DNA of 64,000 bases from NCBI RefSeq assembly GCF_026210795.1, contig NC_089429.1, positions 4,526,001 to 4,590,000 on the forward strand. Reading direction: 5' to 3'. Shown one piece after another: positions 1,981 to 45,113 of this stretch. How positions within the stretch are numbered: the stretch's first letter is position 1; each line of letters starts with the position of its first letter. Origin of the DNA: Rhizophagus irregularis. Lineage: Eukaryota. A program made the position numbers and the translations under genes. Below the pieces are notes generated by a model that was given only the letters and a program-made list of their open reading frames with translations, was not told the origin of the DNA and did not search any database.

Positions 1981-1989
1981 TTATAAGAA

Positions 1990-9136: not shown

Positions 9137-9237
9137 TTTTACGTCAAAATGACTCCATTCTGGCGTCCCTTTTATATTTTCCTATTTTTCTGGAAAATTG
9201 TAGAAGATTCATGTCGTATCCTGCATTGTTTGATTAC

Positions 9238-10503
9238 CTAATCGTCGCTGTTCACTCTCCTTTCAAAATATGGAAGGAGATGATTTGCGTTTACTAATTT
9301 CTTACGTAAGCGACCATCCATTGTCCGCAGCTTATAGGTTCCATTCGGTCCTATATCGTGTATGTAGTAGGGTCCGTTCCACTTCGGATCCAATTTCCTG
9401 GCCTTAAAATTCCGAAGTAGCACTCTATCGCCGATTTGTTATCGATGTGGGCGAACTTTCTTCCCATATTGCTCAACTTGTTTTTCTTGGGATCGGTGAA
9501 TATTTTGCTGCGCCTTGCGATGATCTTCTTCCAGTGGTCCAATTATCTGATATAGTCGCTTAAAATATGTTGCTGTAAGGTCTTCAACTTGTTCGGAACT
9601 ATCAGGTTGACTAGAGATTTGTAATTCAATCGGTATAGTAGCCTCTCTCCCATACATCAAATAGAAAGGCTCATAACGGGTCGTGTTCTGTCGCATGGTG
9701 CGATAGGCAAACAAGGCGGATGGGAGGTAGACGTCCCAATCCTGCTGATATTGGTCAGAATACTTGGCCAAAAGTTCGCACAAGGTCCGATTGAACCTTT
9801 CGACCAACCCGTTCGTCTGTGGATGGTAAGCAGTGGATAACCGATGTTTTACTCCCAGCCGATTACATAACGAATCCAGAAGTTCATTAACGAAATGAGT
9901 TCCTTGGTCAGTTAGGAGTTCCTTTGGGCAACCATGCCGACAAATGATATCGTCATAGAAAAACGGAACCACCGAAGCGGCCTTAGCATCTGGAAGGGCA
10001 CGAGCTTCCGGCCACTTCGTTAAGTATTCAGTGACCACGACGATATACCGATTTCTGGTTCGCGTTATTGGTAACGGTCCCACAATATCCATTCCGATTC
10101 GATCGAAGGGTCTTCCTACCTTGATGGGATGTAACGGTTCCGATTTTATTGGCGGTTTCCGTTTTTGACATATTTCACAGGTCTGCACATATTGTTTAAT
10201 ATCGTCTTCCATCTGCGGCCAATAGTACCTTTCACTAATGGTCCAATAGGTTTCATTAAATCCAAAGTGTCCGGCTAATGAATCACTATGGAAATTATAT
10301 AAAATCGGTTCCACCTCGCTAAGTCGAAGGACCCGCAAAGGTCTTTGAGGGTTCCGATTATTTTTCTTGTATAAAATTCCATTAATAGAACAATAGTGTC
10401 GAGCTTTGCTTTTGAAACTACGGATTTGTGTGGAATCCATCGTTTCTGGTAGAACGAGATCATTCAGATATTGTAATAGTTGGTAATATAGCGTAATATC
10501 CAT
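9238..10503 (-). pseudogene. Gypsy integrase (HHCC, DDE core, GPY), one internal TAA at 9441-9439
   Basis: H..GHFG..CEIC zinc finger, IGMDIVGP, LTDQG, GLVERFN, WNGPY. Confidence 0.9.
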
Positions 10504-10587
10504 GGTTGGGTTAGATCAAGCCGTAATCTGATAAGAGGTGTCGTCCAGAAATACAATCCCGGTAAAATTTTACGATTTTGTCAATTC

Positions 10588-13560
10588 CTAATGTATTCGC
10601 GATAGACTGTCGACGTTCGTATGTTTCTTGCCAGCGCGGTGGATAATCTTGAAATCGTAGGGTTGGAGTTTCATGACCTAGCGGGCCAATCTTCTGGTAG
10701 GAGTTGCCGAGTTAAAAAGATAACACAATGCTGAATGATCCGTTATAAGAGTAAATCGCTTTTCATGTACATAAGGGTGGAAGTGTCCAACGGCCCACAC
10801 AACCGCTAAACACTCAAGTTCGGTAGCCGAATAATTCCTTTCGGCTTTGCTCAATGTCCTACTTGCATATGCAATGACTCGCTCGAATTCGTCTTCGTCC
10901 TTCTGAGCGAGGATAGCGCCCAATCCCAAAGTTGAAGCATTCGTCAATAAGATGAATTTTTCGTCAAACTTCGGGTATGCGAGAATAGGCGCTTGAACTA
11001 AATGCGTCTTCAATAAGTCAAACGACTGTTGTTGCGCCTCAGTCCATACAAAAGGACTGTCCTTTCTTAATAACTTATTTAAGGGATTTGCGATCTTTGA
11101 GAAATCTTTGCTAAATCGTCGATAATAAGACGCTAATCCCAAAAATCCACGCAATTGGGTGACGTTCCGAGGTATCGGAAAGTTTTCCACCTTTTCGATT
11201 TTCGTGGGATCGGTGCATATTCCTTTGGAACTGATCACATATCCCAGAAACGATAGTTCTCTTTTTATGAAATAACATTTCTCGGGATTCAGTTTCAATC
11301 CGGCGTTCTTAAGTCGGTTGAATACATTCCTTAAATGTTCCAGATGTTTTTCGAACGTTGTTGAATATACGTTCAAATCGTCAAGGTACACCACCACGAA
11401 ATCCCATAGTATCCCCTCCAATATCCCGTTCATCAATCGCTGGAAGGTTGCCGGTGCATTACACAAGCCGAACGGCATCACCAGGAATTGATAGGTACCA
11501 TACTGGGTAATGAAAGCCGTTTTCTCTCTGTCCTTGGGATCAACTTCGACTTGCCAGTAGCCGCTGGCTAAGTCCAACGAAGTGTATTACGATACATGTC
11601 CTAAGGCGTCGAGCATATCGTCTATTCGTGGTAACGGATAAGAATCCTTTTTTGTGACTTGATTCAACTGACGATAGTCCACGCAGAATCGCATTTTCCC
11701 ATTCTTTTTCCGAACCAAAACAACAGGAGATGCCCATGCGCTTTTGGATTTTTCGATGAGCCCTTGCTTCAGCATCTTTTGGATTTCTTCAGCTATGAAT
11801 TGTTGTTCGGTTCGGGACGTTCGGTACCACTGTTGTCGAATCGGTTTAGCATCTCCGGTGTTGATCGAGTGATACACTAAATCTGTCCGACCCAATTCCA
11901 CAGTTGTCCAAGCAAACAAATCCCGATACTGTTCAATCAACTTCTGAAATTCATTCCGTTGAGTTTTGGTTAGTTCTCCAACATTCGGTAGCTTTGATTC
12001 TCCCGCAAAGATATCGGTAATTTCATTATGTAAAAAGGGTAACGCAACACTCCGTTTCCTTATCTTTCCGATTTCTTGCCTTCCACAATAATAACATCCG
12101 ATGGCCTGTTGCTCATGCAGAATCGCATCAACATCTTTCGGTGTAAATTCGACTGATTCGAGGTCTTGTGATCGTTGTTCCTTTGTAGGCGGTTCATTCT
12201 CTTCAGGCGTAACTATACTCATCGTGGTGACGATTTGTTCCGGGACATTTTTCACTGCCGTATATAAAGTAAAATCATTTTGGCAGGTTTTACATCCTCT
12301 TGCTTTACCACATAGGCAAAGACTTTTGCCTTCATTTCCACAAATTTCTTTTCGAGCTTTTTCCAATTGGAACTTTCCGTCTAAATATCGGTAATAATTC
12401 CAATGGTAGAAGCTTCTTTGCAAATAAAACCCTTGATTGATGAGAACTAGATCCCCACTCGTCGTACTATTTTCTTTTTTCAGTCCAGACGATTTACGTT
12501 GCTTTAAAGTATCCGTACTGTCGCTTTCGAACTGATAGCAACAATAAACCTTTTCTTCTAATTCTTCCTCTTCGTATTCATCGTCAGACTCTTCCTCCTC
12601 ATCTCCATCATCATCGTCCTCTTCCTCTTCACTTTCAACTATCCTCGCCTCTTCCTCTTTTTGTTTTATCATTCGTTCGTGCGGCATCATCCGATATTCA
12701 ACAGGGATTTCCACTTCTCGGCCTTGCCAAGTGAACAACAACGTCGATGCCTTATAGTTTAACTGGGCTTGCACTTTCGATAGCCAATCGTTACCTACTA
12801 TGGCACTATAAGATTCGGTATCGATTACTACCACGTTGATAAGAACAGTAACGCCACCAACGGTTATCGGAAAATCCAGCACTTCACCCAATGGCCGTTT
12901 CTTTTCCCCGTTGACGTTTATCATCACAATTGCAGATGGTCGGTCTATCGCAATTCCCAAGTCATTCAACAGCTGACAGGTAACAATACTACCAGCTGCT
13001 CCTGTATCGACAATTAATGGGATTCTTTTCCCTTTTATCATGGCGTCGCAATACATTGCTGTCGTACTTTGTACGTCCTGATGAGCGAATTTAGCGCTTC
13101 TAGTCATTGGTTTCCGTAAACTTTTTCCAACGTCGCTTCGAAGCTTTGGTGATATCTGAAATAGTTGTCCGAAGGTAATGTTTGCTCGTTGCTATTGTAA
13201 ATCGGCAACTATGTTGTACGGTGGTATGTGAGCAGCTATTGACGGCTGAACCTTCGGTGTTTTCTTTTTCCGCACCGTAGCCTTCTTCTTTTTAATTTCG
13301 GTAGCCTGTTCTTTCGCATTGACGGTCATCGGCTCTCCTTCGCCAACATTATTAGTCGTTTGGATAGGAATCGGTATTGGTGCATACTGAGGATCTTCAT
13401 GAGCATTTTCCTCTTCGATTATTTCTTTATTCGGATATGGAGTACTTCGAGTCTTTGGTCTATTCCTTTGAGCAGGGTAGGCTTGGAACAAGGTTACATA
13501 CGAGGGATTTTGAACGGGTTTCGCACCTTCGCCCTCCAAAGGTGCACCTCCTAGTTTAAA
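10588..13560 (-). pseudogene. Gypsy pol: aspartic protease, RT, RNase H (3 internal stops)
   Basis: IVDTGA protease; [32 protein letters not shown] RNase H. The three ORF pieces share one frame. Confidence 0.92.
13510..13560 (-). promoter_or_regulatory. -1 programmed ribosomal frameshift signal (U UUA AAC plus stem/pseudoknot)
   Basis: TTTAAAC directly before the gag TAG; GCACCTT/AAGGTGC stem 8 nt downstream; the -1 frame reads into pol. Confidence 0.8.
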
Positions 13561-15317
13561 GGCGCCGATTGTCCTTGCCCTCCCAATTGCTTCAACAGTC
13601 CTTGGAGCAAATTGGGATCAATATTTCCGGTTGGGTTGAAACCAGCCTTACCACCGGTAGTATTCTCCTTCTTTGGACATCGTCTGCTAATATGTCCAGG
13701 TTCCCCGCACGAGTAACATACTATTGGTGGTCTATCTGGAACCGATAGTTCTGGTCTCGCAGCAGGTGGTTTCCGATAACTACCAGACGGACGATTATCA
13801 ATTTTCTTCTCAATTTCGGAAACTTGTTGCGCCAACACGGTAACTAATTTCGTCAATTCAGCCATCTCAGACTTGCCGGTTTGTGCATAATTCATTATCC
13901 GGGGTCTTCCAGAATTCATCGTCAATTCGCAGGCCTTTGCTCGATTAATGGCGTCGGTCAACGTTTGATCTCCAAAGGGTTTCACCGCCATGTATAATTC
14001 TGGCAATAAGCCAGACACGAACTTCCGGGCTTGTACATTATCCGGGTATGCAAATACCGGCTTGTTGATTCGCTGGTATAATTCCCTGATTGCTGACGCA
14101 TATTGATCGACCATTTCGTTCGGTTGTTGTTGCCGTTGGTCCAACTCGGTGGACTACATTTCAACCAATGCAGGTGTTCGGAATTGCTGCTTGAACACAT
14201 GTTCAAATGTGTTATTATTCGCTGCTCCTCCCCACGCGTTTATAGGGTTGTTGACAACCGTTTGCCACCATACTGCGGCCGTTCCTTTCAGATAGGCGGG
14301 CACGACTTGCAATTTGCGTGCTGCATTCCATCCATTTGCTGCGCATGCGTTATTGAACTTGTTTAACCATGTAATCGGGTCTTGGTTTCCGCCATAAAAC
14401 GTCGGAACTGGTGCCGCTTGTACTCCCCGATTCAGCATTGCATTATTGTTAGCTGTTACCGCTGCGTTTAAATTATTTAACGCATTATTCACATTTTGCA
14501 TATTATTTCCGCCAACTCCTAACGCATTTGTCAAATTATTCAAGGCGTTAAGGAGCTGGTTAGCATTAGGCATTCCTCCAGCTATAGCCGCCATGTCTGG
14601 TTCTTCTGGTTCGTTGAATAAATTTTCTAAATATAATTCTTCGTCGGTATAGAGTAAACCAGGATCTGGTGCTTGAAATAGGAAATCTAAGTGAAGGTCT
14701 TCGTCGGTATAAAGTAATCCGGCTTCTTCTTCTTTAAATAAATTATTAAGGTAAAGATCTTCATTGATATATAGTAGCCCAGGCTCTGGTCCTATTAGAT
14801 CAAAGTTGATCTCTAAATCGGAATAGTTGGATGATCCAGTTGATAATTGTACAACAAGGGATTCTGAAGAATCGGTTAATACTTCAGATAATTCAAGTTC
14901 TTCAGTTTCACTAGTTGCTTCCAGCAGCTCTCCGTAAAAATCCTTCTCAAAATTATCGGTAAGGATACAAGCGTTGTATATCTCTTGCCTTAGATTGGTG
15001 TAAGGGCGAGGTATATCGGTATATCTTACAGTGAAAACCAGTGAATAGATAGCTTCCCAAAGATCCCGAATGGTAGGTGCGTCCGATAAATCCTCTAGTG
15101 CTTGTTGAGTATTACTGGTATAACTTCCAGTAGGATTTTCGGTTGAATACCAGTCCCAAAAGTTAACGAATTGTGGAGTATTGGGTCCAGGCGGGTAACA
15201 ATATGGACAGGAAAGATCACGATGATAATACTGAACTTGGATTATATTATTGTTTAAACGTGTATGCCAACGATCGTGTATAGTATTCTGTTGAAAGAAT
15301 AGGTTATAATCTATCAT
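13551..15317 (-). pseudogene. Gypsy gag with long N-terminal extension and CCHC knuckle; internal TAG at 14156-14154
   Basis: PTFYGGNQDPITWL capsid start; CYSCGEPGHISRRC; ORFs 15317-14154 and 14144-13551 are in frame. Confidence 0.9.
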
Positions 15318-15343
15318 ACAATAATCGGGTGGGTATCAAGTTT

Positions 15344-15359
15344 CTGGCAGAAGGCACCA
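15344..15359 (-). promoter_or_regulatory. primer binding site TGGTGCCTTCTGCCAG (possibly tRNA-His)
   Basis: TGG starts 3 nt inside the 5' LTR and is complementary to a tRNA ending ...GGCACCA; tRNA identity is a guess. Confidence 0.7.
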
Positions 15360-15362
15360 AAT

Positions 15363-15867
15363 TGTTACTATCGATTTGCGTCGGGGTCACGTGATAGTAA
15401 CGGAAATTCGTGTCACGTTTATCGTAAAATAAAATGAAATAAAGTATATATGTAAAATTAAGAGTTATATGTATGATTTTAAAGTGTATATTTATTCAAT
15501 GTAAATAATAACTTAAAATAATCAAGCAATACAATAAATAAATGCTAATACATAATAAATTCATAAATAATATCAGAATAGAATATTGCTGCCTCTGCCG
15601 GCGATCTGCAATATTACCGAATAAACTATACTAAAATTTAACACTAAATAAACCTTAATTATCCCCTATCCCCCACTGTTCGCCCGCTCTATATATATTG
15701 TTCAAAAATTCGGTATAAATTATACTATGTATAAGTTAAACTTCGTATAAATTATACCAAGTATAAATTACACTTAGTATAAACTATACAAAGTATAAGT
15801 TACACCGTTACACTGCGGATCGCTGCTAATTTCTTGAACTTTCCATGTGGCGCAGATCCGCGTAACA
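15363..15867 (-). repeat. 5' LTR (505 bp)
   Basis: Direct repeat of 7982-8486. Confidence 0.95.
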
Positions 15868-16509: not shown

Positions 16510-17130
16510 GAAAAATGATATTCCAGTGGCTTAGTAAAATAACTTATTTATCTCCGGTATCCGTACATAAAGCCCTTTAATATATACTTATTTTGACTAA
16601 TAATGATCTTTTTATTCCAATATTGCTTTTTACCCATCTTTTTAAATAAACACCACCCGTGAGAATATCAAGAAAAAAATTCACAAATTTTAACTAGGAA
16701 CCGTGGGATAACTTGTATTAAATACATACGAAACTAAAAATCATAATAATGTTTACAAATTGTTTAATTTGCTAACGAAGACTAGTATGGATTACTTTAT
16801 GGTGAGAAAAAATTGTCAATCATAAGGCGCAGCACATATTTTTAGTTTAACTGACACCAAAAAATCTGCCCAAAAAATTCCGCACAGGCCGGCACTATGC
16901 AGTAACACGTGAATAAACAGTAGTGCGTGACAAATAGGATTTTGACTAACCGAAAAAAATCTAAGTCCCTCAGATACTTATAGAAAATGGAAACACAGAG
17001 GGACGTGACACGTGTGATGAATAAATTTTACTATGTGGATTAATTTTTTAGTACAGTGTGACATAGTACAAATCGTACAAATAACCTTAAATCGATATTT
17101 TTTTTTTAAAAAAAAATTTTTTTACAAGAA

Positions 17131-18540
17131 ATGATGAGAGGATATTCATTAGAAAAAGATTTAAGATTATTAATAAATAATCCAAAATATAGTGACATAG
17201 AAATTTTATGTGAGGATGGAAAGAAATTATATGGTTGTAAAGCAATTTTAGCAGCAAGATCCGAAGTATTTAACGGATTACTTTATAATGGAATGAAGGA
17301 AAGTTATGAAAACAAAATTACTTTTCCAAATATTAATTCTTTTGGTATGGAGATTATTATGGAATATATTTATACGGGATCAATTAAAGAAGAATTTTTA
17401 ACAAAGGATAATATAACTGAAGCATTTTACGCCGCAGATTATTTTCAATTACCAGACCTTCAGGATTTTATTATAAAAGTTTTCAAAAATTTCAAAAATA
17501 TGTTAGAAAAATATTTTTCTCCGGAAATATTGTCTATATTTGCAGGAAAAATGCCATTAACAGAAGATAATATTCTATTAAATTTATTGGTTAAAGCGGT
17601 AGCTAATATTCCATTAAATACAATTGAATTCGATCGATTATCTATTAAAGGTCTTCAATATCTTTTATATTGTACACATGAAAAAAAAATTCCTTTTGCA
17701 ACCCCAGAATATGAAGTTTTTCGATATAGTGCTATCCTTGCAGCAAAACAAGTTTCTAACGATGCATATAAAGCTCTTATGGAACGGGTACCGACCTTAG
17801 AACAAATAGAAAACTCTGTACAAGTACTAGAGAATAAAATAATTGCTGATCATCAAAAAATTGCTAAAGAATTGGAACCTTTAATTGAATTTATTGATTT
17901 CAGACGAATTCAAGGTCTAATATTAGTTGATATTATTGAGCCACTAGAAATTGTTCCAACTAAAATTATTTTAAATGTATATCGATATAATACAAAATCA
18001 ATTAATTCCGATAGAAATTATATTCGAGGAGTACCCATTTATTTCAATTATATTTGGGATGATACAGCATGTGGATCAAAACTTATTATTGAGGATAATG
18101 GAAAAGTTATTTATGCACGAAATGATCTTGATTTACTCCATAGTGTTAGAGCTAAAATGATATTAGAAAATAATTATATTTTTGAATGGGATGTTATTAT
18201 TGAAAGAACTTGTAGTTGGTCTTGGGTTGGGGTATGTGCATCAGAAAATTTTGATTATGAAATTCCTGCAGGAAAACAATTTTCTGGATGGGTATTAGGT
18301 TCCAATGGTAATTGTCGTAGTTCTGGAGTTAATATAGGAAATTATTGCCCATCATTCGGAGATGGTACAAAAATTACTGTCCACTTAGATATGAATAAAA
18401 GAACTTGTGCTTTTACAGTCAACGGTACAAAGTATCCAGAAGTATCAACATGGGATAATTTACCATCAAAGCTTTATCCAGTAGTATCGTTGTATTACCC
18501 TGGTCGATTTCGAATTCAGCCTCATCAGAAAAGAATTTGA
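17131..18540 (+). CDS. BTB/POZ-BACK-SPRY protein, 469 aa
   Basis: Intact paralog of 1990-3411. Confidence 0.9.
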   Translation: MMRGYSLEKDLRLLINNPKYSDIEILCEDGKKLYGCKAILAARSEVFNGLLYNGMKESYENKITFPNINSFGMEIIMEYIYTGSIKEEFLTKDNITEAFYAADYFQLPDLQDFIIKVFKNFKNMLEKYFSPEILSIFAGKMPLTEDNILLNLLVKAVANIPLNTIEFDRLSIKGLQYLLYCTHEKKIPFATPEYEVFRYSAILAAKQVSNDAYKALMERVPTLEQIENSVQVLENKIIADHQKIAKELEPLIEFIDFRRIQGLILVDIIEPLEIVPTKIILNVYRYNTKSINSDRNYIRGVPIYFNYIWDDTACGSKLIIEDNGKVIYARNDLDLLHSVRAKMILENNYIFEWDVIIERTCSWSWVGVCASENFDYEIPAGKQFSGWVLGSNGNCRSSGVNIGNYCPSFGDGTKITVHLDMNKRTCAFTVNGTKYPEVSTWDNLPSKLYPVVSLYYPGRFRIQPHQKRI

Positions 18541-21827: not shown

Positions 21828-24800
21828 ATGGCTCAAAGTAACGATAAAGGTAAAAGCATATAACATGAGTATAGATATCTAATACAAATTGAAATTGCTC
21901 TAAATTTTTTTCAAACCAAATTTGCAACATAATGAAACTAGTTTCAAAAATTGAGAAAGATAAAGGTAAGAAAATTATTTAACAGCTTGCGAATTATAAA
22001 CATAATTTAAATTTTTTAAACTATTTCTAAATATTATTTTACTATATTAGCTCGTAAGTAATAGGTTATCTTATAATCGGAATGATAATTAATTAAATTA
22101 CTTATTTCTATTATTTTATATAACCAAATAATTCATTTTATTATTTAATATTATTATAGTTGGTAAGTTAATAGCTATTTTTTTTTTATTGCATTTTACA
22201 TGATATCTTAAATAACTAAATTTTCTATTAATATAATTACGATACTAATATCATAGGAAGTAAGTAATTAATTTTATATTAATTTAAAAGTATTTAAAGT
22301 ATTTATTTAATAATTTTAATAATATAGGGAGTATGTTTTTATTTAATTCCATTATATTTATATAATATTTACATATAATTTAAACTAACTAAATTCTTTA
22401 TTTAAAAAATTATTCAAACATTTTAGAACGTAAGTAATTCTATTATATTTATACAATATTTACATATAATTTAAACTAACTAGATTCTTTATTTAAAAAA
22501 TTATTCAAATATTTTAGAACGTAAGTAATTCTATTATATTTATATAATATTTACATATAATTTAAACTAACTAAATTCTTTATTAAAAAACCATTTTGTA
22601 ATTTCTTTTAGTTGGTAAGTTATAAGTTATTTATATAATATTTACATATAATTTAAACTAACTAAATTCTTTATTTAAAAAATTATTCAAATATTTTAGA
22701 ACGTAAGTAATTCTATTATATTTATATAATATTTACATATAATTTAAGCTAACTAAATTCTTTATTTAAAAAATTATTCAAATATTTTAGATTGTAAGTA
22801 ATTCTATTATATTTATATAATATTTACATATAATTTAAACTAACTAAATTCTTTATTTAAAAAATTATTCAAATATTTTAGATTGTAAGTAATTCTATTA
22901 TATTTTTATAATATTTACTTATAATTTAAACTAACTAAATTCTTTATTTAAAAAATTATTCAAATATTTTAGATTGTAAGTAATTCTATTATATTTTTAT
23001 AATATTTACATATAATTTATACTAACTAAATTCTTTATTTAAAAATTATTTATTAGGGAGTATGTTATTTATTTAATTCTATTATATTTATATAATATTT
23101 AAATATAATTTAAGCCAACTAAATTCTTTATTTAAAAATATTTTAGAATGTAAGTAATTTTATAATATTTACATATAATTTAAAACTAACTAAATTCTTT
23201 ATTAAAAAACTATTTTGTAATTTCTTTTAGTTGGTAAGTTATAAGTTATTTATATAATATTTACATATAATTTAAACTAACTAAATTCTTTATTTAAAAA
23301 TTATTCAAATATTTTAGAATGTAAGTAATTCTATTATATTTATATAATATTTATATTTAATTAAACTAACTAAATTCTTTATTTAAAAATTATTCAAATA
23401 TTTTAGGTTGTAAGTAATTCTATCATATTTATATAATAATTACATATAATTTAAACTTACTAAATTCTTTATTTAAAAAATTATTCAAATATTTTAGATA
23501 GTGAGTAATTCTATTATATTTATAGAATATTTACATATAATTTAAACTAACTAAATTCTTTATTTAAAAAATTATTTATTTAATAATATAGGATGTATGT
23601 TATTTATTTAATTCTATTGTATTTATATAATATTTACATATAATTTAAATTAACTGAACTCTTTATTTAAAAAATTATTCAAATATTTTAGATGGTAAGT
23701 AATTCTATTATAATTTACATATAATTTAAACTAACTAAATTCTTTATTTAAAAAATTATTCAAATATTTTAGAACGTAAGTAATTCTATTATATTTATAT
23801 AATATTTATATATAATTTAAACCAACTAAATTCTTTATTTAAAAAATTATTTATTTAATAATTTTAATAATATAGGGAGTATGTTATTTATTTGATTCTA
23901 TTATATCTATATAATATTTACATATAATTTAAACTAACTAAATTTTTATTTAAAAAATTATTCAAATATTTTAGATTGTAAGTAATTCTATAATATTTAT
24001 ATAATATACATATAATTTAGACCAACTAAATTTTTTATTTAAAAAATTATTCAAATATTTTAGATAGTAAGTAATTCTATTATATTTATATAATATTTAT
24101 ATATAATTTAAACTAACTAAATTCTTTATTTAAAAAATTATTCAAATATTTTAGATAGTAAGTAATTCTATTACATTTATATAATATTTACATATAATTT
24201 AACTAACTAAATTCTTTATTTAAAAATTTATTTTGTAATTTTTTTTAGTTGGTATGTTATAAGTTATTTATTTAATTCTATTATATTTACTATAATATTT
24301 ATATATAATTTAAACTAAATTCTTTATTTAAAAAATATTCAAATATTTAGATGGTAAGTAATTCTATATTTACTATATAATATTTACATATAATTTAAAC
24401 TAACTAAATTCTTTATTTAAAAAATTATTTACTTAATAATATAGGGCGTATGTTATTTATTTAATTCTATTATATTTATATAATATTTACATATAATTTA
24501 AACTAACTAAATCCTTTATTTAAAAAATTATTTATTTAATAATATAGGGCGTATGTTATTTATTTAATTCTATTATATTTATATAATATTTACATATAAT
24601 TTAAACTAACTAAATTCTTTATTTAAAAAATTATTCAAATATTTTAGATAGTAAGTAATTCTATTATATTTATATAATATTTATATATAATTTAAACTAA
24701 CTAAATTCTTTATTTAAAAAATTATTCAAATATTTTAGAACGTAAGTAATTCTATTTATATTTATATAATATTTACATATAATTCAAACTAACTAAATTC

Positions 24801-27800
24801 TTTATTTAAAAAATTATTTTGTAATTTCTTTTAGTTGGTAAGTTATAAGTTATTTATTTAATTTTATTATATTTATATAATATTTACATATAATTTAAAC
24901 TAACTAAATTTTTTATTTTAAAAATTGTTCAATTATTTTAGATTGTAAGTAATTCTATTATATTTATATAATATTTACATATAATTAACTAACTAAATTC
25001 TTTATTTAAAAAATTCTTTATTTAATGATATAGTCTGTAAGTTATTTATTTAATTCTATTATATTTATATAATATTTACATATAATTTAAACTAACTAAA
25101 TTATTTATTTAAAAAATTATTTATTTAATAATATAGGGCGTATGTTATTTATTTAATTCTATTATATTTATATAATATTTACATATAATTTAAACTAACT
25201 AAATTCTTTATTTAAAAAATTATTTATTTAATGATATAGGGCGTATGTTATTTATTTAATTCTATTATATTTATATAATATTTATATATAATTTAAACTA
25301 ACTAAATTCTTTATTTAAAAAATTATTCAAATATTTTAGAACGTAAGTAATTCTATTTATATTTATATAATATTTACATATAATTTAAACTAACTAAATT
25401 CCTATTTATATTTATATAATATTTACATATAATTTAAACTAACTAAATTCTTTATTTAAAAAATTATTTATTTAATAATATAGGGCGTATGTTATTTATT
25501 TAATTCTATTATATTTATATAATATTTACATATAATTTAAATTAACTAAATTCTTTATTTAAAAAATTATTTTGTAATTTCTTTTAGTTGGTAATTTATA
25601 TGTTATTTATTAAATATATAATATTTACATATAATTTAAACTAACTTAATTCTTTATTTAAAAAAAAATTATTCAAATATTTTAGATGGTAAGTAATTCT
25701 ATTATATTTTTATAATACTTACATATAATTTATACTAACTAAATTCTTTATTTTAAAAATTATTTATTAGGGAGTATGTTATTTATTTAATTCTATTATA
25801 TTTATATAATATTTAAATATAATTTAAACTAACTAAATTCTTTATTTAAAAATATTTTAGAATGTAAGTAATTTTACAATATTTACATATAATTTAAATT
25901 AACTAAATTCTTTATTTAAAAAATTATTTACTTAATAATATAGGGCGTATGTTATTTATTTAATTCTATTATATTTATATAATATTTACATATAATTTAA
26001 ACTAACTAAATTCTTTATTTAAAAAATTATTCAAATATTTTAGATAGTAAGTAATTCTATTATATTTATATAATATTTATATATAATTTAAACTAACTAA
26101 ATTCTTTATTTAAAAAATTATTCAAATATTTTAGAACGTAAGTAATTCTATAATATTTACATATAATTTAAAATTAACTAAATTCTTTATTAAAAAACTA
26201 TTTTGTAATTTCTTTTAGTTAGTAAGTTATAAGTTATTTATTTAATTCTATTATATTTATATAATATTTGCATATAATTTAAACTAACTAAATTCGTTAT
26301 TTAAAAAATTATTCAAATATTTTAGATAGTAAGTAATTCTATTTATATTTATATAATATTTACATATAATTCAAACTAACTAAATTCTTTATTTAAAAAA
26401 TTATTTTGTAATTTCTTTTAGTTGGTAAGTTATAAGTTATTTATTTAATTTTATTATATTTATATAATATTTACATATAATTTAAACTAACTAAATTTTT
26501 TATTTTAAAAATTGTTCAATTATTTTAGATTGTAAGTAATTCTATTATATTTATATAATATTTACATATAATTAACTAACTAAATTCTTTATTTAAAAAA
26601 TTCTTTATTTAATGATATAGTCTGTAAGTTATTTATTTAATTCTATTATATTTATATAATATTTACATATAATTTAAACTAACTAAATTATTTATTTAAA
26701 AAATTATTTATTTAATAATATAGGGCGTATGTTATTTATTTAATTCTATTATATTTATATAATATTTACATATAATTTAAACTAACTAAATTCTTTATTT
26801 AAAAAATTATTCAAATATTTTAGATGGTAAGTAATTCCATTATATTTATATAATATTTACATATAATTTTAACTAACTAAATTCTTTATTTAAAAAATCA
26901 TTCAAATATTTTAGATGGTAAGTAATTCTATTATATTTATATAATATTACATATAATTTAAACTAACTAAGTTCTTTTTAAATTATTTTGTAATTTCTTT
27001 TAGCTGGTAAATTATTTGTTATTTATTTAATTCTATTATATTTATACAGTATTTCATATAATTTAAACTAACAATTCTTTATTTAACAAATTATTTTGTA
27101 ATTTTCTTTAGCTGGTAAGTTATTTGTTATTTATTTAATTCTATTACTATATTTATGTAATATTACATATAATTTAAACTAATTAAGTTCTTTATTTATT
27201 AAATTATTTTGTAATTTCTTTTAGCTGGTAAGTCATTTGTTATTAAATTCTATTATATTTATATAATATTTACATATAATTTAAATTTACTAAATTCTTT
27301 ACTTAAAAATTATTTTGTAATTTCTTTTAGTTGGTAAGTTATAAATTATTATATACTATTATTTAAAATTAAATTAATTAATTATTTAAACTATATTAAA
27401 TTTTTATAATTTTATTTAGAGTAAGTATAATTAATATTGTTTAATATTTAAATTTTTAATGTAAATTTTATTTAAATTTTAATTTAATATAATTTCATTT
27501 TATACTTAAAGAATTGTTACTAGTGGAAGTAAAATTATGGATCAATTTATTTCTGAAAATAAATTAAAATGGATTTCTTATGATAAATTTAAACATATTA
27601 AATATCTTGATAAAGGAGGATTTGGTATTGTATATAAAGCTAAATATAAAGCTACTAAGTATAAAGATATTAAAGTTATTCTTAAATATTTTGATTATCT
27701 TAATAATTCAGATGAAAGTTTAAATGAAAGTTTAAATGAAGTATGATTAAATATTATCTTTTTTTTAATATTATAAATTATTTATACCTAATTTACTGAT

Positions 27801-30155
27801 AAATATTATTTTTTATAGTGGAAAATTATTGATTCATATGAAATTATTAGAATATATGGATTTACAAAAAATCCAGATACTTTGAATTATGTATTAATAA
27901 TGGAGTATAGAAATAAGAATAGTTTAAAAAAATGTTTAACAGAAATAACAAAAAATTGGGAACAAAAATTATTTTGTTTATATCAAATTATTAAGGGACT
28001 TAATGATATTCATGAAGAAGATCTTATTCATTATAGCTTTCATAATGGTAATATTTTATGTAACAAATATGAAGAAAATATATATGGAATTTTTATTAGT
28101 GATTATTTAGGATTATATCAACTTGCAAAATCTTTTTTAAAAGCAAATGATATCTATGGAGTTTTACCATTTATAGCACCTGAAATTTTAAAAGGTCAAC
28201 CCTATACTCAAGCTAGTAATATATATAGTTTTTCTATAATTATGTGGGAATTTACATCTAAAATTCTACCATTTAATGATAAAGCACATGATATTCAGCT
28301 TGCTTTAAGTATTTGTAAAGGTGAACGTCCTGAAATTATTGAAAATACTCCACAATGTTATATAGATTTAATGAAAAAATGCTGGGATGAAGATCCATTA
28401 AAAAGACCATCTTCTAAAGAAATTTTAAATATTATTGAAAATTGGATTTTTCGTCCTGAGAATAAGAAAATTGAAGATATTAATGAAGAATTAAAAAGCA
28501 ATATTATGGAATTTATAAATGCACCAATTGAGCATCTTATTGTAGAATCTCATCCAAAAGCATGCTATACAAGTCATTCACTTGGTTTTACTAGTAAAGA
28601 ATTAATTGAAAAACTAATTCTAGAAAGCCCTCAGGTATTTCTTGAACTATATCAAAGTTCTCAAAATGAATTACAAAATATTCAAATTGAATTAGTTAAT
28701 TTACAACAAAGAAATTCTCGAATAGAAGAAGAAATTCTTAAGTTAGAAAAGATTGCTGAAACTTATTATCAAAGTTCTCAAAATGAGTTAGTTAATTTAC
28801 AACAAAGAAATTCTCAATTTAAAAATCAATTAATTCAAACAAAAGAAGAAAAACTCAAGTTAGAAAATGAATTATTTGATTTACAACAAAGGAATTTTAA
28901 ATTTGAGCAAAATAATCAAAATCCGAGGCTTAAATTTGCTAAACAGATTAAAGAATTTGCAAAAAAAGAAAATGTTTTACAAACCCAAATTATTGATCTA
29001 CAAAATGAAAAGCAAAACTTAGCTGGCAATTTAACTGAACAGTTGGGACAAAATAAACTAATTAACCAGCAAGTTCAAGATCAAATCTGCCAGTTAAAGC
29101 AAGAAGAAACTAAATTGCAAGAAAAATTATCTCAAATAAAAGCTAATATTCAAGAATTAAAATCTTACAAAGAAAGCTTAATTGAACAAAAAGAGCAATT
29201 AGAAAATAGATTAAATCAGTTTCAAGTTAATTATGAACAGATAGAACAAGAAAAGATCAGATTATACAATATGGCAGAAGGACTTTCACAAGAACAGAAG
29301 CAAACAATTAAATTGAAAATCAAGTTTGAAAAAGAAATTGCTCAATTGGAACAAAATTTGATTATTGAAGAACAAATCAAAATGCAATTAACTCAAGCTT
29401 TACAGATTAAAGTTGATAAAATAAATGAATTAGAACAAAAACTTATTAACCTTGATCAAGAGCGTATTAAAAAATTACAAAATAAAAGAAAAGAATTGAG
29501 TGAAATTGAAAAGGAATTATTAAATAAATTAACTAGTGGGAAAAATACTAAAGAAATTCATAAAGAAGAAGCTAAACAAAAAGAGATAAATGAACTCCAA
29601 CAAGAATTATCAAGAACTTTAGCTTCTTATAATATCAATAGAAAAAAACAGGTTTTCAATCAAGTCAATAATTTTTTGAAAGTTAAGGGTGATTTCCTAA
29701 CTTTACGAGAAGAAGCTATTAAAAAACTACAAAATTGCTGCAATCATCTAGAAAGTTCTATTAATAAAGAAAGAAATACTATTGGTTCTAACAGAGATAT
29801 GAAAATCTCAAAATTGACTGATAAATATACTAAAAAATTTCAAAGTATTCTTGTAAAATATAATGATGGATTGTTAGAGTTGAACAAAATTTATTATTCC
29901 TTAAAGAATGTTATTCAGAAAAATAAAGAGTTGGAAGTTAGCCTCATGATTGAAAATATTCTTAAGTTGAATTCTTTCAATCTTGATAAATACAAAATTT
30001 TTAAATTTGCTACTAATTCTCAGGAAGGAACCAGAATTCAATTAAATTCTAATATGATGGAAGAAGATATAAATTCATTAAGAAAGAATTTGAATGAATT
30101 GAAATTAGAATTAAACCAAGAAAAAAAAGAATCAAAAAATTTAGCAACAGTTTAA
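21828..30155 (+). CDS. micro-exon-array gene: variable N-terminal peptide, TKL-type pseudokinase, long coiled coil
   Basis: Model: 21828-21849, 21942-21965 (or ATG 21932-21965), 56 x 3-nt exons from 22051 to 27333, 1-nt exon 27420, 27512-27740, 27819-30155. All introns are GT-AG and the joined frame is open. Confidence 0.7.
21966..27511 (+). repeat. tandem array of 58 intron units (71-144 bp spacing, typically ~95) separated by micro-exons
   Basis: Unit: GTAAGT/GTATGT - tattatatttatataatatttacatataatttaaACTAACtaaattctttatttaaaaaatt - TAG, then 3 variable nt. Confidence 0.92.
27512..30155 (+). CDS. kinase-like domain plus ~500-aa coiled coil (exons 27512-27740, 27819-30155)
   Basis: TSGSKIMDQFI, KGGFGIVYKA, VILK, YGFTKNP, HYSFHNGNIL, PFIAPE, GERPEI, CWDEDPLKRP; Q/E/K/L heptad-rich tail. 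Confidence 0.9.
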
Positions 30156-32460: not shown

Positions 32461-35400
32461 TTATTATTTATTTTAAGCCGTAATATTATGGAACTTAATT
32501 ATTGACTTTCCTTTGCAGTAAATACATATATTAAATTAATAATTCGATTAACAAATTATGAACTACTTCATCGTTATATTGTTTATATTGTTTATGGATT
32601 CATATAATGCTACTTTGTTACTAATCCTCCCACTACTATTCTTATTCTTAAACTTCTTTGAAGAACTTATAAATTGAGGCTCTTTCAATAGTTATTTTTT
32701 ATGGTTAATCTTTATCTTCGCTAATCCTATTTTTGTTAATCTTATTGTTATTTTATATTATTATTTCATTATTTTTTGTTAATTTCATTATCTTTTGTTA
32801 TTTCTTATCGTCGGGATTTTGTACGGGTCCCATTATACCTATTTTAAGCTAATTAAATTCTAATTTATTTAGATGGTAAATTATACTAAGTTATTATTTT
32901 ATTATTTTTTTTTGTTATTTTTTAATTATTATTTTATTCTTTATTTATTATTCTTCGGTTGTTAGATATTATATTTTATTTCACGGGTAAATTTTTTTTT
33001 TTGAGGCTGAGATTTTTTGTAATTATCATCTATTTTCAGATAATAAACTTTTTTACATTAAATTGATTATATTTGATCATGCGATCATGCATATTTGTAT
33101 TTCTCAGCAGTCCAGATAATTTGACTCTCCGCTGTATTTAAGGCAAAAAAATAATGATTGTAGACTAACCGATATGGAAATTTACTATTGTTTAGACTAC
33201 TACGTGACGCAATGGTTTCAGAGTCATATGATAGCTCGGCCATAAAGATGACTCATAAATCAAACAAACTATTAGTCATGGTTGATAACAATATTCATTC
33301 AACAATAGAATATAACATTGTAGACTTATATCATGTGATAAGAAAATAATATAAAAAGGTACACCTTCCTAACAAAAAAAGCCACTACCTAATAAAAAAC
33401 TCTCCTAACAAAAAAATAAATAATAATGTTGTTTCCGAGTTTTAAACTCTCCTAACAAAAAAAAAAGATGATGGTCCATACGAACAACAAAAGGCTTTTA
33501 TGGATAATAACGTTGCCTTCGACCTATGAAAAAATTAAACGTTAAAACCTACTGCTGTCTAACAAATGTTACTGTTTACTGGAATTTTTAAGAGGTGGGT
33601 AAAGAGTATTCTATCACCCACTGACCATAAGCCTTGACTGCACACCGCGAAAGCAACGTGCGAAGGTTTATGAGGGCTGACCGAACGACTTTAAAGGGTT
33701 GCAAATAGATGACTGGGGCCCATCGTACGAGAACCCACCCCAAGGTTATATCTTTGAAAGTGGAGCCTTAGTTAAGGTACCTGAATATAAGTCATCAGGT
33801 TCAAATTCACCGTCTTGAAGATATAGTAGTTGGCTGACAAGTGCTCTGGAGTCACTCTTGCAAAGGATCTGATGGTCATAATAGAGGATATAGATGGTGG
33901 TGAAGGATACCATGATATATATAGTCACTCCCGAAATGTATGCTTATCCCTAAGGTAGTTGGGTTATGGTGTACAACCACTTGTCAAAATGGTCACTGTT
34001 TAAAATACCATTTTGGTATTCACTATTATGGCCTGAAGTGAATGAGCTAGAACTAACATAAGGTTTCAATGCTAATTTATAGGGACCTGTAGAATGGCAT
34101 GGGCGGAAAGAAATGCAACAAAGAGAACTCCACTTCAAGAAATTAAATCGGTTCTTATTGCTCAGTTTACATTTTTCATTGTTTTATATTATCACATAAT
34201 TGGTTACTGACCACCAAACTATTTTAACATAGCGTTATAAGAAGACCAGCATGAAGTCCGGCAAAAAAAAATAAGATATATGAGACGGTATAATCTATAG
34301 TCAATGGCCATATATATTAGTGTAGAAAATTTAGCAAATGAGCCTAATCATGTAATTTATTTACTACATCAAAAAATAATTCATCCGAAAAGGCTATACA
34401 TTGTATTAAGAATATTTTTCGTGGGATATAGAGATGTATGGTGATAAAAAAAAGTGAGACCTAAAGTCCCACTTGAATAAAATAAATCACGTCCTATATG
34501 AAAGTTGTAATCGAATATGTAATCTGAATTTGATAAGTAATGTTATATCCCAGGAACACGTAATTTATTCTCGAACTTTCTTGCATATACTCAAAGTTTT
34601 ACGTATAAAAAAAAAGAGATCTTTGTATATGGGTAGCGTCAAAAGTTTTTTTTTATTATAAATCCGTTGATCAGACTTTCGTGATGCGATCATATTAACG
34701 TAATCTCCCCAAAAGTGATCCTGTAAATTATATAAAAAAGGTGAGACCCTGGGGATTAGTGAACTCTTATCTATCTTGTGCAAGTAAGGTGAAAAAATAA
34801 CAAACGAAATAATCACATTATCAATAATATTAATCAAACGAACTCGTATATTCCGCAAATTAATAATGTTGGTTTTGTTGCTCGACTAGTTTCTAAAAGA
34901 ACGCCATCAATGTTAATCGATTTTTCCGGCTCTATAATGCTCAAAGTCAAAGCGGACATATTACTATTCTTGATCTTTTAACACATTTGGTATTCGCCGA
35001 GAAATCGTGATTGCTAGCACGTGCCTCATCGCCGCAGTAAAATTCAGAGAAAAAAAATCACATCTGTAATTTCAGCAGTATCATCCTGCCTATAAAAAAA
35101 TCGAAACACCTTTATTATAACGCATTAAGCAACATTCATAGTCTTCCGAATTTATACTTAGGTTCGAAATTTCTTATTTTTGGAGAAGTTCTCTTCTGGA
35201 ATATTATTATTTAATAGTGTTGTATGGGCGGAAGTGATGTACTGTAGATAGACAAAACTTCTGTAGATATGTGTGGGATATTTTATTTCGGAAATCTAGT
35301 GTAGAAAAAGCTGAGAATCTATAGTGATAGAAACAAATTAGCTATATTTTTCGAAAACGTGAGAAAGTAAAGAAATAACTAGTCCCATCTTTGATAGCAA

Positions 35401-39631: not shown

Positions 39632-42600
39632 ATGTCTTTACCTAATAATAAAATTATTAATAAATTAAATTATCGAAGAAGGAAGAATAAACGCAGTAGT
39701 TTTAGAAATAATCTGACCTTCTTAAGTCCCAGAGATGATCAAAGTGATATGTTATCATGTGCCAAAAATGATCCTCTTTCCAAAAAGGAACGTTATCAAA
39801 TCGAGATTTGTCAGGATGGTAAACTTGCTGTAACATTTGATACAGGTAAAAAATTCATTTGAAAATTTATAAATTGTGTAATGTTTGTTTATTATATTAT
39901 TAATGGAGTAACACAAAGCAGCCTTGAACTTTAGACCCCTCTCCTTTAATTAAAGTAACTCCTTTTTTCTTTTTTTTTTAAAAAAAAAGCAAACCTTCGG
40001 ATTAGAGTATTAGATAATACAGATCATCGTCAATTCGGATTATCTAAAAAAACGACTACTTCAGAACATAATACAAACAATCAGAACGATCAGGGTGAAG
40101 AAGAAATTACTAAAACAATCGCTTATTTCAAAATAAACGAAAATTTGGATATTGCCAAGTTCTATGACCAATATGATACTCTATGCACTAATCGAGAAAC
40201 TGGAATTGACGTTAATGATGATACGGACAAAAGATATAGATGGGGTTTAGATATATCAAATATACAAAATTATTATCAAGACAAATATTTTATCTTTATT
40301 GCTGTATCCCGCATAGATGTTAGTGAGGATATGAAAGGAAAAGTGAATACTGATACAAATTTTGATTATAAGAAAAACACTATAAAAAAAAGATATGAAA
40401 GAATTAATGAAGATTTTAGACTTGATCTGTCAGGAACATCATACTATAGTAAATCAAATGAAACTAAAAAAGGAACAGCAGTTTACCGTCTTAAGCTAAT
40501 AAAGGAAAATAACAACTTTATTCTTGATTTGTGTCCCGTAACTTATTATTATTCTGGTAGCGTTTCAGGAATATGTAAATTTATACAAAATTTTGATGAT
40601 CGCGATATCGATCAAAATAATTATACTTTAAAAAGATTTGTAGTATTGAACTTTAATGGAATATATAATTTTGAGTATGATTTTGATTATAGAAATCTTG
40701 ATTTAAATACAAGATTTGATTATCCAAAAAGTATTGAAAATGAATTACAACATTGGCATAAAGAAAATTTGGAAGATTGTATGGATAAGCTTCTTGCATG
40801 TCTTTATGATCAATATTTCTTGGTCGAACAATATAAGAATAATGTACAGGCGCTTGAAGGTAAAATATCATACATAATTAATATTATTTATTTTATTATA
40901 ACATATTTTGAATTTATATTAACAAAAAATTATAGTTTATGATCTGGCAGACATGAGCTTAAAAACTACTCCAAAAAGAGTCGAAAAAGATAAGCACGGT
41001 AGAAAGTTTAATCGCAATACTTTTTCAGTCAGTAAACTACAAATTTGTTTTACTCGAGGAATTAATTCTGTGAAGTAAGTTTGTTTTGAATTGTTCGATT
41101 TTGTCATTACTTATTCATTTATCATTTTTTTTATTCGAATCAAATTATCTATTAGATTGTACTTAATGGAGAATGGTCTGGAGGTCGTATCAAAAAAATT
41201 TGGTGAAATAGAAAAAATTCATTCGCTAGAATTCATTGATAGTGATGAAAAATTACTTATAATGGGTGAGAAAAAGAATCAGGTGAAGCTTGTGATCTGG
41301 GATATCTATAATACTGTAGAGGCCACACCGATAACATTAGAAAATTTTTCTATCGCAGATCTTGGCAATCGTTTGGCTAGAACTTCAGGAAATATTTTAC
41401 ACGTTGATGAAGTTGGAAAGGTTATATCAGTTCTTAAAAAAATCGAAAATAAATTAAATAAAAATACACCAAAAGATTCAAAAGGAATTTTTGAAAAATA
41501 TACACATTCAAAATTAGGTGAAACCCCGGATGGAAAAGCGGATGAAAAACATACGATACATTATGATAAAGGATTTGAACCGATAGTTATTGATAAAGAA
41601 CCTTGGGTGATGGATGAGTATGAAAGAAATTCTTATTGTCTTTATCAAAAGAAAGAAAATACAAGAATACAAACTTTACAACTTATAGTTGGCAGATCCA
41701 CGGTTCAAATTTGGCATCAAGTCCGTGATGATAGTAAGTCTAAAGGTGAACTTTCTAAACTTCCTAACAAAGGAGGTCCATTTCTTGAATATATATGGGC
41801 GAATGGTATTCCGATAAATCAAGAAAGGAAATCAACAAGATTAAGAATTGGAGAGTTCAAATATAAACCAAATGATGGATCAAGCCATATACCAGATGAT
41901 TTTTTTTTGAAAGTTTATTGGTATGAAAGAGCTTCAAATGTAAATTACAAAGGGAAAACAGAAGAAGAAATTAGAGAAATTGAGGAAGAAGAAATAAAAA
42001 AAATGGAACGTAATAGAAAAGAGAGAAGAAAGGATGAAATTATGGAAAAGGATGAGGATGAAATTATGGAGGATGAAATTATGGAGAAGAATGAAATTAT
42101 TATGGAAATGAAGGAAAAAGTAATTCAACGGAAAGATATTATTGAAAAAGTTGGTGCGGTAAGACGCGCTTGTAAAGCATTGGAACATCTTAATAAGCGC
42201 AGAAGTTTTCTCGTGACTAATTACATTAAAATACATCAAGTAGGTTGATTATATTCATTGTTTAAACTTTTTTTTAGGAAAAATGGAAGTTAATTAAAAT
42301 TTCTTTTTAATTAAAAGCATGAGGAAATGATAATGTATATTCAGCATATAGTCTGGAGGTTTGCTAAATTTAAACCTGAGGAATTTAAATTGTTAGACGT
42401 TCGACATAACGTCATGAAAAAATTAATTCTTGGTGATTGCAATCATTTAATAAAACTTATTTTATTTGGAGACAAAAGTAATAAGGATGATGAAAATGAA
42501 AATAAAGAGGAATTCGTAATCAGACATATACCAAGGAGTGTGTCGTGGCCAGGAAAAAATTTTATAAGTGATGATGACCTCCGATTTGATAATAATGGTC

Positions 42601-45113
42601 TAGGACTAGAAGATAATGATGAAAGGCCAAAAAATGATATGGAATTAGCAATTTATCGTTACAAAGGTAAATGAAACTTATGGCGTAGGTTTATAATTTA
42701 TATCATTGATTAATAATTTAATTTTACCTATAGGTCGTGAACTTAAAGATACTGTTGTTGTCGCTTATCTCTTGGAATATTATTCTAGTCATGCAACAGA
42801 TTATGCTGGTTGGATGAGTACTGTGTCTAAGGCATTACCATTATTATTTAAATATAACTACGGTTCGTTTTTATTTTTCATTCAACACTTCAATAGGATC
42901 TATGATATTTACAATTTTATTTTATAACACAGATGATTATGCCAGAAAGCTATTTCGTAAAGAATGTTTTGCGAATCAAGATTATTTTTCAGCACAAGAT
43001 CCTTATAATATTATTCCAATAGAATACCAAGCGAAACGTAACAATAACATTAAATTTAGGGCATTTAGAATAGACAAACTGCAGTCCGACGAGTATAAAT
43101 GGTATAATAGAATTGGAAAATTATTTGATCCTTTTAAAAAAACGTACAAATTTCTTGAAGATTTTGATAATTACCTTGAGAAGTCGCCTTTAGCTTTAAG
43201 AGTTGTTCCTCTTCCAGAATTTACCATGAACAGAATTCCTCAGAAAAATATAGAACACAATTATAGATTAAAAATTGTTTTAAATATTTTTTTGTTCTTA
43301 TTTATACCACGATGGTACCAAATTAGTCGAGATAAAAAGAAACTGTTAAGCCCTTTTTCTAGGGTGGTGCGATATGAGAATGATGATGATATGTATGACA
43401 ATCCAGCAACCGAAGCGGTTATTGATTTTCGTTGGCAACAAGCGAGAAATTTCTTTTTCTTCCTTTTTCTTCGATTTCTTGTTTTTGCCTTTTGTTTCAT
43501 AATTATTAGCTGGGAATATTTAAATCATGAAGTTATAAGTTGGAAATTTCGAAATTTTTTAGTTGCATTAATTTTCATATTTTATTATTTAGCAGCATAT
43601 TTATTCATTACTGAATTAATACAGTTGTATTTTCACGGACCTAGAAAATATTTTGGTGATATATTTAATAGTTTTGACATATGTTCCATTTTACTTCCCG
43701 TGATAGTAATGTCAATAATGCTTCGAGATTTTGAATTTTCTGATGGCTTTGCAAGTGTTAAATCAATTGATATGGGATTGATGGTGGGGACATCATTCTC
43801 TATTTTCTTCCTTTGGATCGAATTTGTAAGGTTTTGTTTTACAATTTTTTTTTTCTTTTAAATATAATATAATATTAACATGTGATTTTTAATAATTTAG
43901 GTTTTATATCTCCGCTTAATATCAAGTAAATATAAAATTCAACTTTATTTTAAAAAAGTTCATTATTATCAATTAATAATTCATTATTTTTTATTTTTAT
44001 TTTTAATCTATTAGAAATAGCCAAATATATTTATTATGTTATATATATCATCAAAAACATATTCCCATTTATTTTGTTTATGTTCATTGTAACAATTGGA
44101 TTTGCGCACACAATGTATAATCATTTCAATTTTTTTTTTTTGATATCATATTTATTTTAATTTAATTGATAACAATTTTTATTTATATCTAGGTTTATTT
44201 TACTTAAGGACCCTAATAATCCTAAAATTAATGTAAAATTGGATACATTAAGTGGAACTGCTACAAGTATAATAAATGATGATGAAACATTATTTAATAT
44301 TAAACTTGAATCTGATTATGATGTTAAAGATAAGAATGATAATCCATTTTCATCCTTTTCTACGGCAATAATGGCTGCATATTTTTGGTTGAATGGTGAT
44401 ATGGTTCAAAGAGATCATTTTGACTTTTGGGTTATTGATTTATTTACTTTAATTGCTAGTATTTTTATTGTAACTGTTTTGCAAAATATGTTGATTGCTT
44501 TCATGGGGTAAATTATTATTATTAGTATTATTAATTTATAAATACTATTTTATTTATTAATATTATTTATTTATTTTATTTTAGTGGAGTTTATGAAAGA
44601 GCAGAAACTAATGGAAGACAATCTTTATTAAGATTTAGAGCAAATCAAATAGCAGATTATGAAGCATTAGAACATTTTCATTTTTGGCCTAATGAACCTG
44701 AACCAAAATATATTTATTATATTGGACAATCTAAAAATTTTCAAGAATGGTATCAAAAAAGAAAAGATGATCAAGGTGAAATTTATAAAGATTTTGAGGA
44801 AAAATCTACAATTATTACTCAAACTTTTAAAGATGTTGATTTTGATGAAACTTCAATTTGGAAATTTGATGATGATAATAATAATTCATCTGATAATATT
44901 AAAGGTAAAAAGAAAGAAGTTTCTACCGATTCTACTGATTCTATTGACTCTATTATAGAATTATCAGAAATAATGGAAGAAAAAAATTCTCAAGAAAATT
45001 TTTTAAAAGAAGTTGATAAAAGAATTAATGAAATAAAAAAAATGAGTGATGATATTCATAATTTATTTAATGAAATATGTATAAAATTTAATAATATACC
45101 AAAAAACTTATGA
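39632..45113 (+). CDS. TRP-like cation channel, multi-exon (~11 exons)
   Basis: GT-AG exons join in frame where checked (39632-39845, 39990-40859, 40936-41074, 41156-42239, 25-nt exon 43901-43925, last exon 44585-45113); NPATEAVIDFRW, TM helices, pore FSTAIMAAYFWL, S6 VTVLQNMLIAFM, LRFRANQIADYE. Confidence 0.8.

Follow-up and report, generated by a model that had tools for sequence, protein, structure and literature searches.

A single-nucleotide exon between an array of three-nucleotide exons and the kinase exons of a kinase-like gene in the mycorrhizal fungus Rhizophagus irregularis

The window analyzed here, the whole stretch of 64,000 nucleotides from Rhizophagus irregularis contig NC_089429.1 (positions 4,526,001 to 4,590,000), is AT-rich fungal DNA. 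On its forward strand we find a gene whose predicted structure leads from two short coding exons, through 56 exon-like triplets and an exon of one base, into two large exons with a kinase fold. The model, in window coordinates, is given below; the X3 contig is an assembled contig from run X3, which is described with the RNA evidence.

21828..21849, + strand: exon 1, 22 nt, with the ATG start, encoding MAQSNDK plus one G and ending in phase 1; predicted from sequence
21942..21965, + strand: exon 2, 24 nt, phase 1 to phase 1, with AG and GTAAGA at its ends; predicted
22051..27333, + strand: array of 56 three-base exons in phase 1, with introns of 68 to 141 nt; exons 1 to 46 are predicted only
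27334..27419, + strand: intron 5' of the single-nucleotide exon, 86 nt, GTAAGT..TTTAG; missing from the X3 contig
27420..27420, + strand: single-nucleotide exon A, second base of a Glu codon to which three exons contribute; present in the X3 contig
27421..27511, + strand: intron 3' of the single-nucleotide exon, 91 nt, GTAAGT..TAAAG; missing from the X3 contig
27512..27740, + strand: first kinase exon, with a phase-2 acceptor, the Gly-rich loop, and an internal ATG at which public model P0001 starts
27741..27818, + strand: kinase intron, 78 nt, GT..AG
27819..30155, + strand: last exon, kinase C-lobe followed by a long Gln/Glu/Lys-rich tail

Translated through all 56 triplets, the A, and both kinase exons, the predicted product is a stop-free chain of 926 amino acids (aa). 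N termini like that encoded by exon 1 are found in the homologs P0067 (MAQNNDK) and P0097 (MALNNDKV). The match of the last exon to the R. irregularis protein P0001 covers 77% of the query at 100% identity, and most of the relatives listed for it are kinase-like proteins from Rhizophagus. P0001 and many homolog models place the start of translation at the internal ATG near 27536. The joint from 27740 to 27819 was seen in one read from run X22 and three from X23, for which close paralogs may be the source. By composition, the Gln/Glu/Lys-rich tail may form a coiled coil.

The two large exons matched Pfam families PF00069 (E 1.5e-26, 93.8 bits versus a cut-off of 31.7) and PF07714 (E 3e-24, 86.2 bits versus 23.1); only kinase families were hit, and NACHT and ankyrin domains were absent. 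Active kinases carry a catalytic Asp in the HRD motif of the catalytic loop. The loop of this gene (HYSFHNGN, in the region 28010-28040) has no Asp, a feature that an earlier note on the locus had missed, and among the 72 stored homologs in which the loop was matched, 31 have no Asp there either. The kinase-like product is likely a pseudokinase.

Each of the 56 triplets lies between a TAG and a GT donor, a motif matched 54 times in the window versus 1.0 expected, a count reached in none of 100 shuffles. The array is a tandem repeat of period 91 with 41 copies and units of about 91 to 103 nt, and it includes an exact 483-nt repeat of four units at 24742 and 26329. The sequence CTAAC occurs within the last 60 nt of 41 of the 55 array introns. 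Isolated microexon-like motifs also occur outside the array, at 1418-1429 and 32870-32881 (+) of the window, where their number is at chance level, and at L063:5156-5165 in a related locus.

Read in phase 2, the array contains many stops, while phase 0 is stop-free within it and runs into stops a short way 5' of both exon 1 and exon 2. In phase 1, codons formed across adjacent exons gave no stop in 55 pairs in the window, where 2.85 were expected (P 0.025), and none in 72 pairs in related loci from soil metagenome contigs, where 3.99 were expected (P 0.005); these P values are indicative only, because duplicated units are not independent. Pairs formed by skipping one exon gave stops in 4 of 54 cases in the window (2.88 expected) and 5 of 52 in the soil loci (3.6 expected). 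One soil locus, L063, has TAA and TAG exons, so phase 0 is excluded there if those exons are included in the message. The stop pattern fits translation in phase 1 with exons included in order, and it is compatible with some skipping.

We also compared 25 of the 56 units, near-identical ones picked by their shared acceptor context. Diversity at the three exon bases was 0.08, 0.45, and 0.77 (0.43 per site), compared with 0.09 to 0.12 in the flanking intron at sites outside those used for unit selection. This excess variation of the exon bases suggests diversifying selection, although gene conversion, as well as constraint acting on the signals in the introns, could enhance the contrast between exon and intron.

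The single-base exon lies in the sequence TAG-A-GTAAGT at 27417-27426, with the A at 27420. It has AG and GT flanks and introns of normal size on both sides (86 and 91 nt, against an array median of 91), and it is needed for the frame; skipping it would leave an intron of 178 nt. The array delivers phase 1, and the acceptor at 27512 as well as the next two AGs require phase 2. The A supplies the difference, as G+A+A encodes Glu and puts the kinase exon back in the 926-aa frame; without it the frame would end at 89 aa, at a stop near 27565 that lies 5' of the last junction. Both the exon and this phase logic had been proposed in the first-pass annotation, and both hold up. The motif by itself is at chance level in the 64 kb (one match versus 0.65 expected, reached in 52 of 100 shuffles); what leads us to judge the exon real is that it sits in the 178-nt gap, that it is conserved, and that the RNA contig contains it. 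The only AG-A-GT between exon 56 and the kinase exon is the one at 27418-27422. Branch-point candidates in the two introns flanking the A are weaker matches of the T-T-R-A-Y type only.

Junctions were surveyed over the region 27400-27595 in runs X23, X24, X2, and X3. The junction at the exact locus comes from one contig of one run, X3, whose status as RNA is a guess. This contig of 923 nt has a depth of 12.9 and 0 differences over 27512-27595. Before 27512 it continues with 179 unplaced letters, of which the 30 displayed adjoin the kinase exon and comprise two bases from the end of exon 47, then exons 48 to 56 in sequence, and finally one A. Nowhere in the window do these 30 letters stand together. 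The A can be assigned to 27420 because the flanking genomic bases are both G and the gap holds only one AG-A-GT. A junction of exon 56, A, and kinase exon had been named as the check to make in RNA, and the joined sequence with the extra A is what the X3 contig contains. The full 179 letters are compatible with the sum 1 + 168 + 10, but equally with other sums. A retrocopy as the source of the contig would likewise go back to a spliced message. Zero-length (recursive) splicing at 27420 was considered and is ruled out, as the A is kept in the X3 contig.

Nine more junction rows were listed, all from paralogs, with a further 15 rows outside the listing: seven rows of raw polyA reads (144 reads) and two X2 contigs. 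In eight of these nine, TTG is followed by one base (A in six, G in two) and then by the A that opens the kinase exon; an X2 row (27522) has an ambiguous junction. The paralog rows are majority consensuses with an agreement of 0.70 to 0.94, in which minority skipping is invisible, and the paralogs are represented here by these rows. Neither a skipped junction nor one with an AGTAA exon appeared among the 10 listed rows, where majority consensus and low depth hide minorities. The raw reads are mostly paralogous, with 99% or higher likeness to the locus in only 5 of 106 and 1 of 135, and paralogs also dominate the reads over 27340-28300; RNA from the exact locus is scarce in runs X22 to X24. Run X1 behaves as DNA (intronic contigs, 0 differences). 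The summed depth of X1 contigs peaks at 975 over 27406-27438, compared with 33 to 348 beside it, which is no measure of copy number. One X23 read starts near 27419 and crosses the 3' intron, as either a half-spliced intermediate or plain pre-mRNA or DNA would.

A scan of metagenome contigs yielded 149 related loci, of which the best 80 were kept. Thirty of these had no kinase start. Among the 50 with a visible kinase start, 18 had no donor within 260 nt, 3 had a donor without a microexon, and 29 had a microexon at the last donor. Of these 29 soil loci, five have a last exon of one base (A, T, A, A, A), four have one of 4 nt, and the other 20 have one of 3 nt. Acceptor phase was assigned by a fixed rule, taking the first AG that leaves the frame open. 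The kinase acceptor was then in phase 2 in 5/5 loci with a 1-nt last exon and in 4/4 with a 4-nt one, while loci with a 3-nt last exon had a phase-1 acceptor in 18/20 cases and a phase-2 acceptor in 1/20. There were two exceptions. In L017 the first AG is in phase 0 and the next in phase 1, as in L030 and L043. L031 combines a 3-nt exon with a phase-2 acceptor and retains a decayed TAG-T-ATAAGT that aligns with the 1-nt exon; its donor (L031:305-320) is now AT, a sign of decay. Another such sign is an in-frame TAA right after the first acceptor of L005 (L005:515-530).

The sequence TTTAG-N-GTAAGT is kept in L003, L005, L006, L007, and L016 and forms a conserved island in six of seven aligned loci. 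The island persists in kinases only 58 to 62% identical to the query, as well as in L016 at 90%. In L010, L011, L012, and L044, a 4-nt terminal exon (CAAA, CAAT, AAAA, and CAAT, respectively) replaces the 1-nt exon. In a tree of 30 kinase segments, a branch with support of 100/99 separates the 1-nt, 4-nt, and decayed loci from all nineteen 3-nt loci. The covariation of exon length and acceptor phase is one or a few inherited events, not 29; we therefore reject a Fisher P of about 1e-6 (9/9 versus 1/20) as a measure, since the label follows one deep branch. The sister clade has no 1-nt exon because its acceptor is already in phase 1. Before its kinases stand arrays of 8 to 19 visible three-base exons, cut off by contig ends, in L059, L063, L074, L075, L018, and L029.

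Public protein models look different. By inspection, a phase-1 array joined to the kinase was evident in none of the N termini of 133 public family proteins, and a protein search with the first kinase exon returned no array-bearing model among 20 matches. As 29/50 soil loci carry such exons, the N termini of many mycorrhizal kinases are probably mis-annotated. The pattern SK-F/S-G-K/N-S stands at the place where array and kinase meet in 5/133 public proteins. In P0092, P0096, P0100, P0104, P0106, and P0062, an array of this kind is apparently read in phase 0 with a Ser-Lys bridge. Public models bridged in this way are probably mis-models of the 1-nt exon.

Taken together, we favor, at a probability of about 80% for the whole, a reading in which the single base is a constitutively spliced frame adaptor, the array is included in order, its protein tip is diversified at the DNA level, and the product is kinase-like. 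The introns of 70 to 140 nt would each be recognized across their own length and removed one after another, so that a single base would never be seen as a free-standing exon. The 1-nt exon would serve as a fixed adaptor from the phase-1 array to the phase-2 kinase, one that a 4-nt exon could replace and that a phase-1 kinase acceptor would make superfluous. Array exons would normally be included, in order, and each codon would take its first base from the end of one exon and its other two bases from the start of the following exon. Given this division of the codons, duplication of intron plus exon, together with point changes in exons, could rewrite the N-terminal peptide at the DNA level. The product would be a kinase-like signaling protein, probably catalytically impaired, with a hypervariable tip of 56 residues.

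The most serious alternative, which we consider unlikely but worth keeping in view, is that the array is alternatively spliced, as in Tuber melanosporum nank, to give many N-terminal peptides, with the 1-nt exon as a fixed end. Every array exon preserves the frame and about 90% of single skips are stop-free (4/54 are not); secondary citations supply the precedent, and this reading would be compatible with our preferred explanation. The one X3 contig, however, has ten consecutive exons in order. Pairs formed by skipping one exon show no avoidance of stops, though decay of a few bad isoforms could make these tolerable. It is less probable still, and on balance improbable, that the 1-nt exon is a regulated cassette whose skipping would shift the frame and turn the kinase off, likely via nonsense-mediated decay. 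The sequence does predict a frameshift and an 89-aa product upon skipping, the downstream acceptor has a weak AAG, and exact-locus RNA is scarce in X22 to X24. Nevertheless, the 10 listed rows contain no skipped junction (the X2 row at 27522 being ambiguous), the donor of the 1-nt exon fits the consensus, the exon itself is kept in its clade, in five soil loci, four related loci have the 4-nt equivalent, and 18 need no adaptor. The on/off switch suggested in the first-pass annotation is thus unsupported.

A further reading, in which the array serves as a spliced 5' untranslated leader or is a satellite in decay, the kinase starts at the internal ATG near 27536, and the added A plays no part in coding, appears highly improbable. 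The internal ATG is where P0001 and many homolog models begin, and decay is visible in the L031 donor and the in-frame TAA of L005, but stop avoidance is specific to phase 1, acceptor phase tracks the length of the last exon, and the upstream in-frame ATG exon is conserved in homolog N termini. We find it barely credible that the array is read in phase 0 and followed by a 5-nt AGTAA exon with a GTATAA donor, which would yield a Gly/Ile/Leu/Met-rich tip ending in Ser-Lys. Such a tip agrees with the lack of phase-0 stops in the array within the window and, as inferred from the model, with the SK-F/S-G-K/N-S of 5/133 public proteins. Against it, the X3 contig and the raw-read rows have one base rather than five, stops lie 5' of exons 1 and 2, L063 has its TAA and TAG exons, and the second GT is absent in L012. 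An AGTAA exon after the phase-1 array, also raised earlier, would not bring the kinase exon back into frame from phase 1 and would introduce an in-frame TAA, for a product of 72 aa, and it is absent from the 10 listed junction rows.

One-base exons and arrays of codon-sized exons are each already known. The original account of codon-sized mini-exons in T. melanosporum nank is reportedly that of Iotti et al. in 2012. The nank (NACHT-ANK) genes are an expanded family with tens of tandem 3-nt exons, for which a role as diversity generator has been proposed and extensive alternative splicing reported, as related in other papers (PMC4986451, PMC13449251, PMC10197012). Like nank, the present gene has tens of tandem 3-nt exons (56, with the last ten seen spliced). 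Unlike nank as it is described there, the hosts here are kinase-like genes of Glomeromycota, the array is N-terminal, and it ends in a 1- or 4-nt adaptor; also, the evidence here points to in-order inclusion and change at the DNA level, versus alternative splicing in Tuber. Codons are split across exons here. Membership in the nank family was rejected, as there is no NACHT or ankyrin domain and only kinase families were found.

In Arabidopsis APC11, a constitutive exon of one nucleotide within a single-copy housekeeping gene was proven with constructs, and the Discussion proposes sequential removal of introns (PMC4674806). Like that exon, ours is one base between two spliceosomal introns, essential to the frame and missed by annotation; it differs in ending a microexon array, whereas the APC11 exon is isolated. 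Among fungi, two further reports describe a one-nucleotide exon in Fusarium CYP621A (PMC12940212) and 13 one-base exons in Coprinopsis cinerea (PMC12230235). These share with the present exon the passage from a phase-1 donor to a phase-2 acceptor, the position as middle codon base, and RNA support. In the same accounts, however, they encode a conserved motif residue in ordinary genes, while ours belongs to a different phylum, stands at the end of a 56-exon array, and has a base that varies (A and T, with G inferred from reads).

Schistosoma MEG genes have 10 to 20 mostly 15-nt exons (range, 6 to 81) per gene with introns of 0.1 to 5 kb and encode short secreted proteins (bioRxiv 2023.06.21.545858). 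Like the present gene, they belong to a variable family and have series of very short exons that preserve the frame; 56 exons of 3 nt, introns of about 91 nt, and a kinase-fold protein of 926 aa set the present gene apart. By inspection, its predicted N terminus is charged (MAQSNDKVSKIEKDK), unlike the MEG signal peptide. We rejected MEG membership on exon number and size, intron length, the charged N terminus, and the length of the protein.

We found no report of microexon arrays in mycorrhizal fungi in the literature searched, with subscription journals and supplements outside the search, and none there of a 1-nt exon combined with a codon-sized array in mycorrhizal kinases. Microexon arrays are likewise unmentioned in the passages on exons, introns, and kinases of an R. 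irregularis genome paper (PMC10234402).

At this locus, the spliceosome joins a run of at least 10 exons of three bases plus one of a single base, and the full run probably counts 57 such exons, which makes the gene a natural extreme for testing intron definition and the order of splicing. In many related genes, the array likely makes the tip of the protein highly variable, and the excess variation of exon bases suggests selection for diversity; the expansion of the gene family itself is unexplained. More tentatively, and at somewhat less than even odds, this arbuscular mycorrhizal kinase-like family may use its split-codon array as a genomic diversity generator that gives each member a unique N-terminal sensor peptide, attached by a 1- or 4-nt adaptor. 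If so, units would be duplicated, shuffled, and diversified, as a Glomeromycota counterpart of the hypervariable repeats of fungal NLRs. Current annotation would fail to show such a generator, which would be a candidate means of recognizing non-self or partners.

Elsewhere in the window, a tandem family of seven similar open reading frames (ORFs) lies on the + strand (1987-3411, 4909-5379, 17110-18540, 47267-48673, 50008-51351, 52777-54240, and 57521-58960), presumably encoding BTB/POZ plus SPRY-type proteins; a stop interrupts the copy at 52777-54240. On the - strand, about 8330-15800 holds gag-, RT-, and integrase-like ORFs with interrupting stops, and a 16/32-bp tandem is shared by 8332 and 15713. 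We take this region to be the remains of a Ty3/Gypsy-like LTR retrotransposon. A multi-exon gene with several hydrophobic segments occupies 39959-45113 (+) and, we assume, resembles a TRP-like ion channel. Finally, a tandem repeat of period 185 with 4.4 copies lies at 61683-62480.
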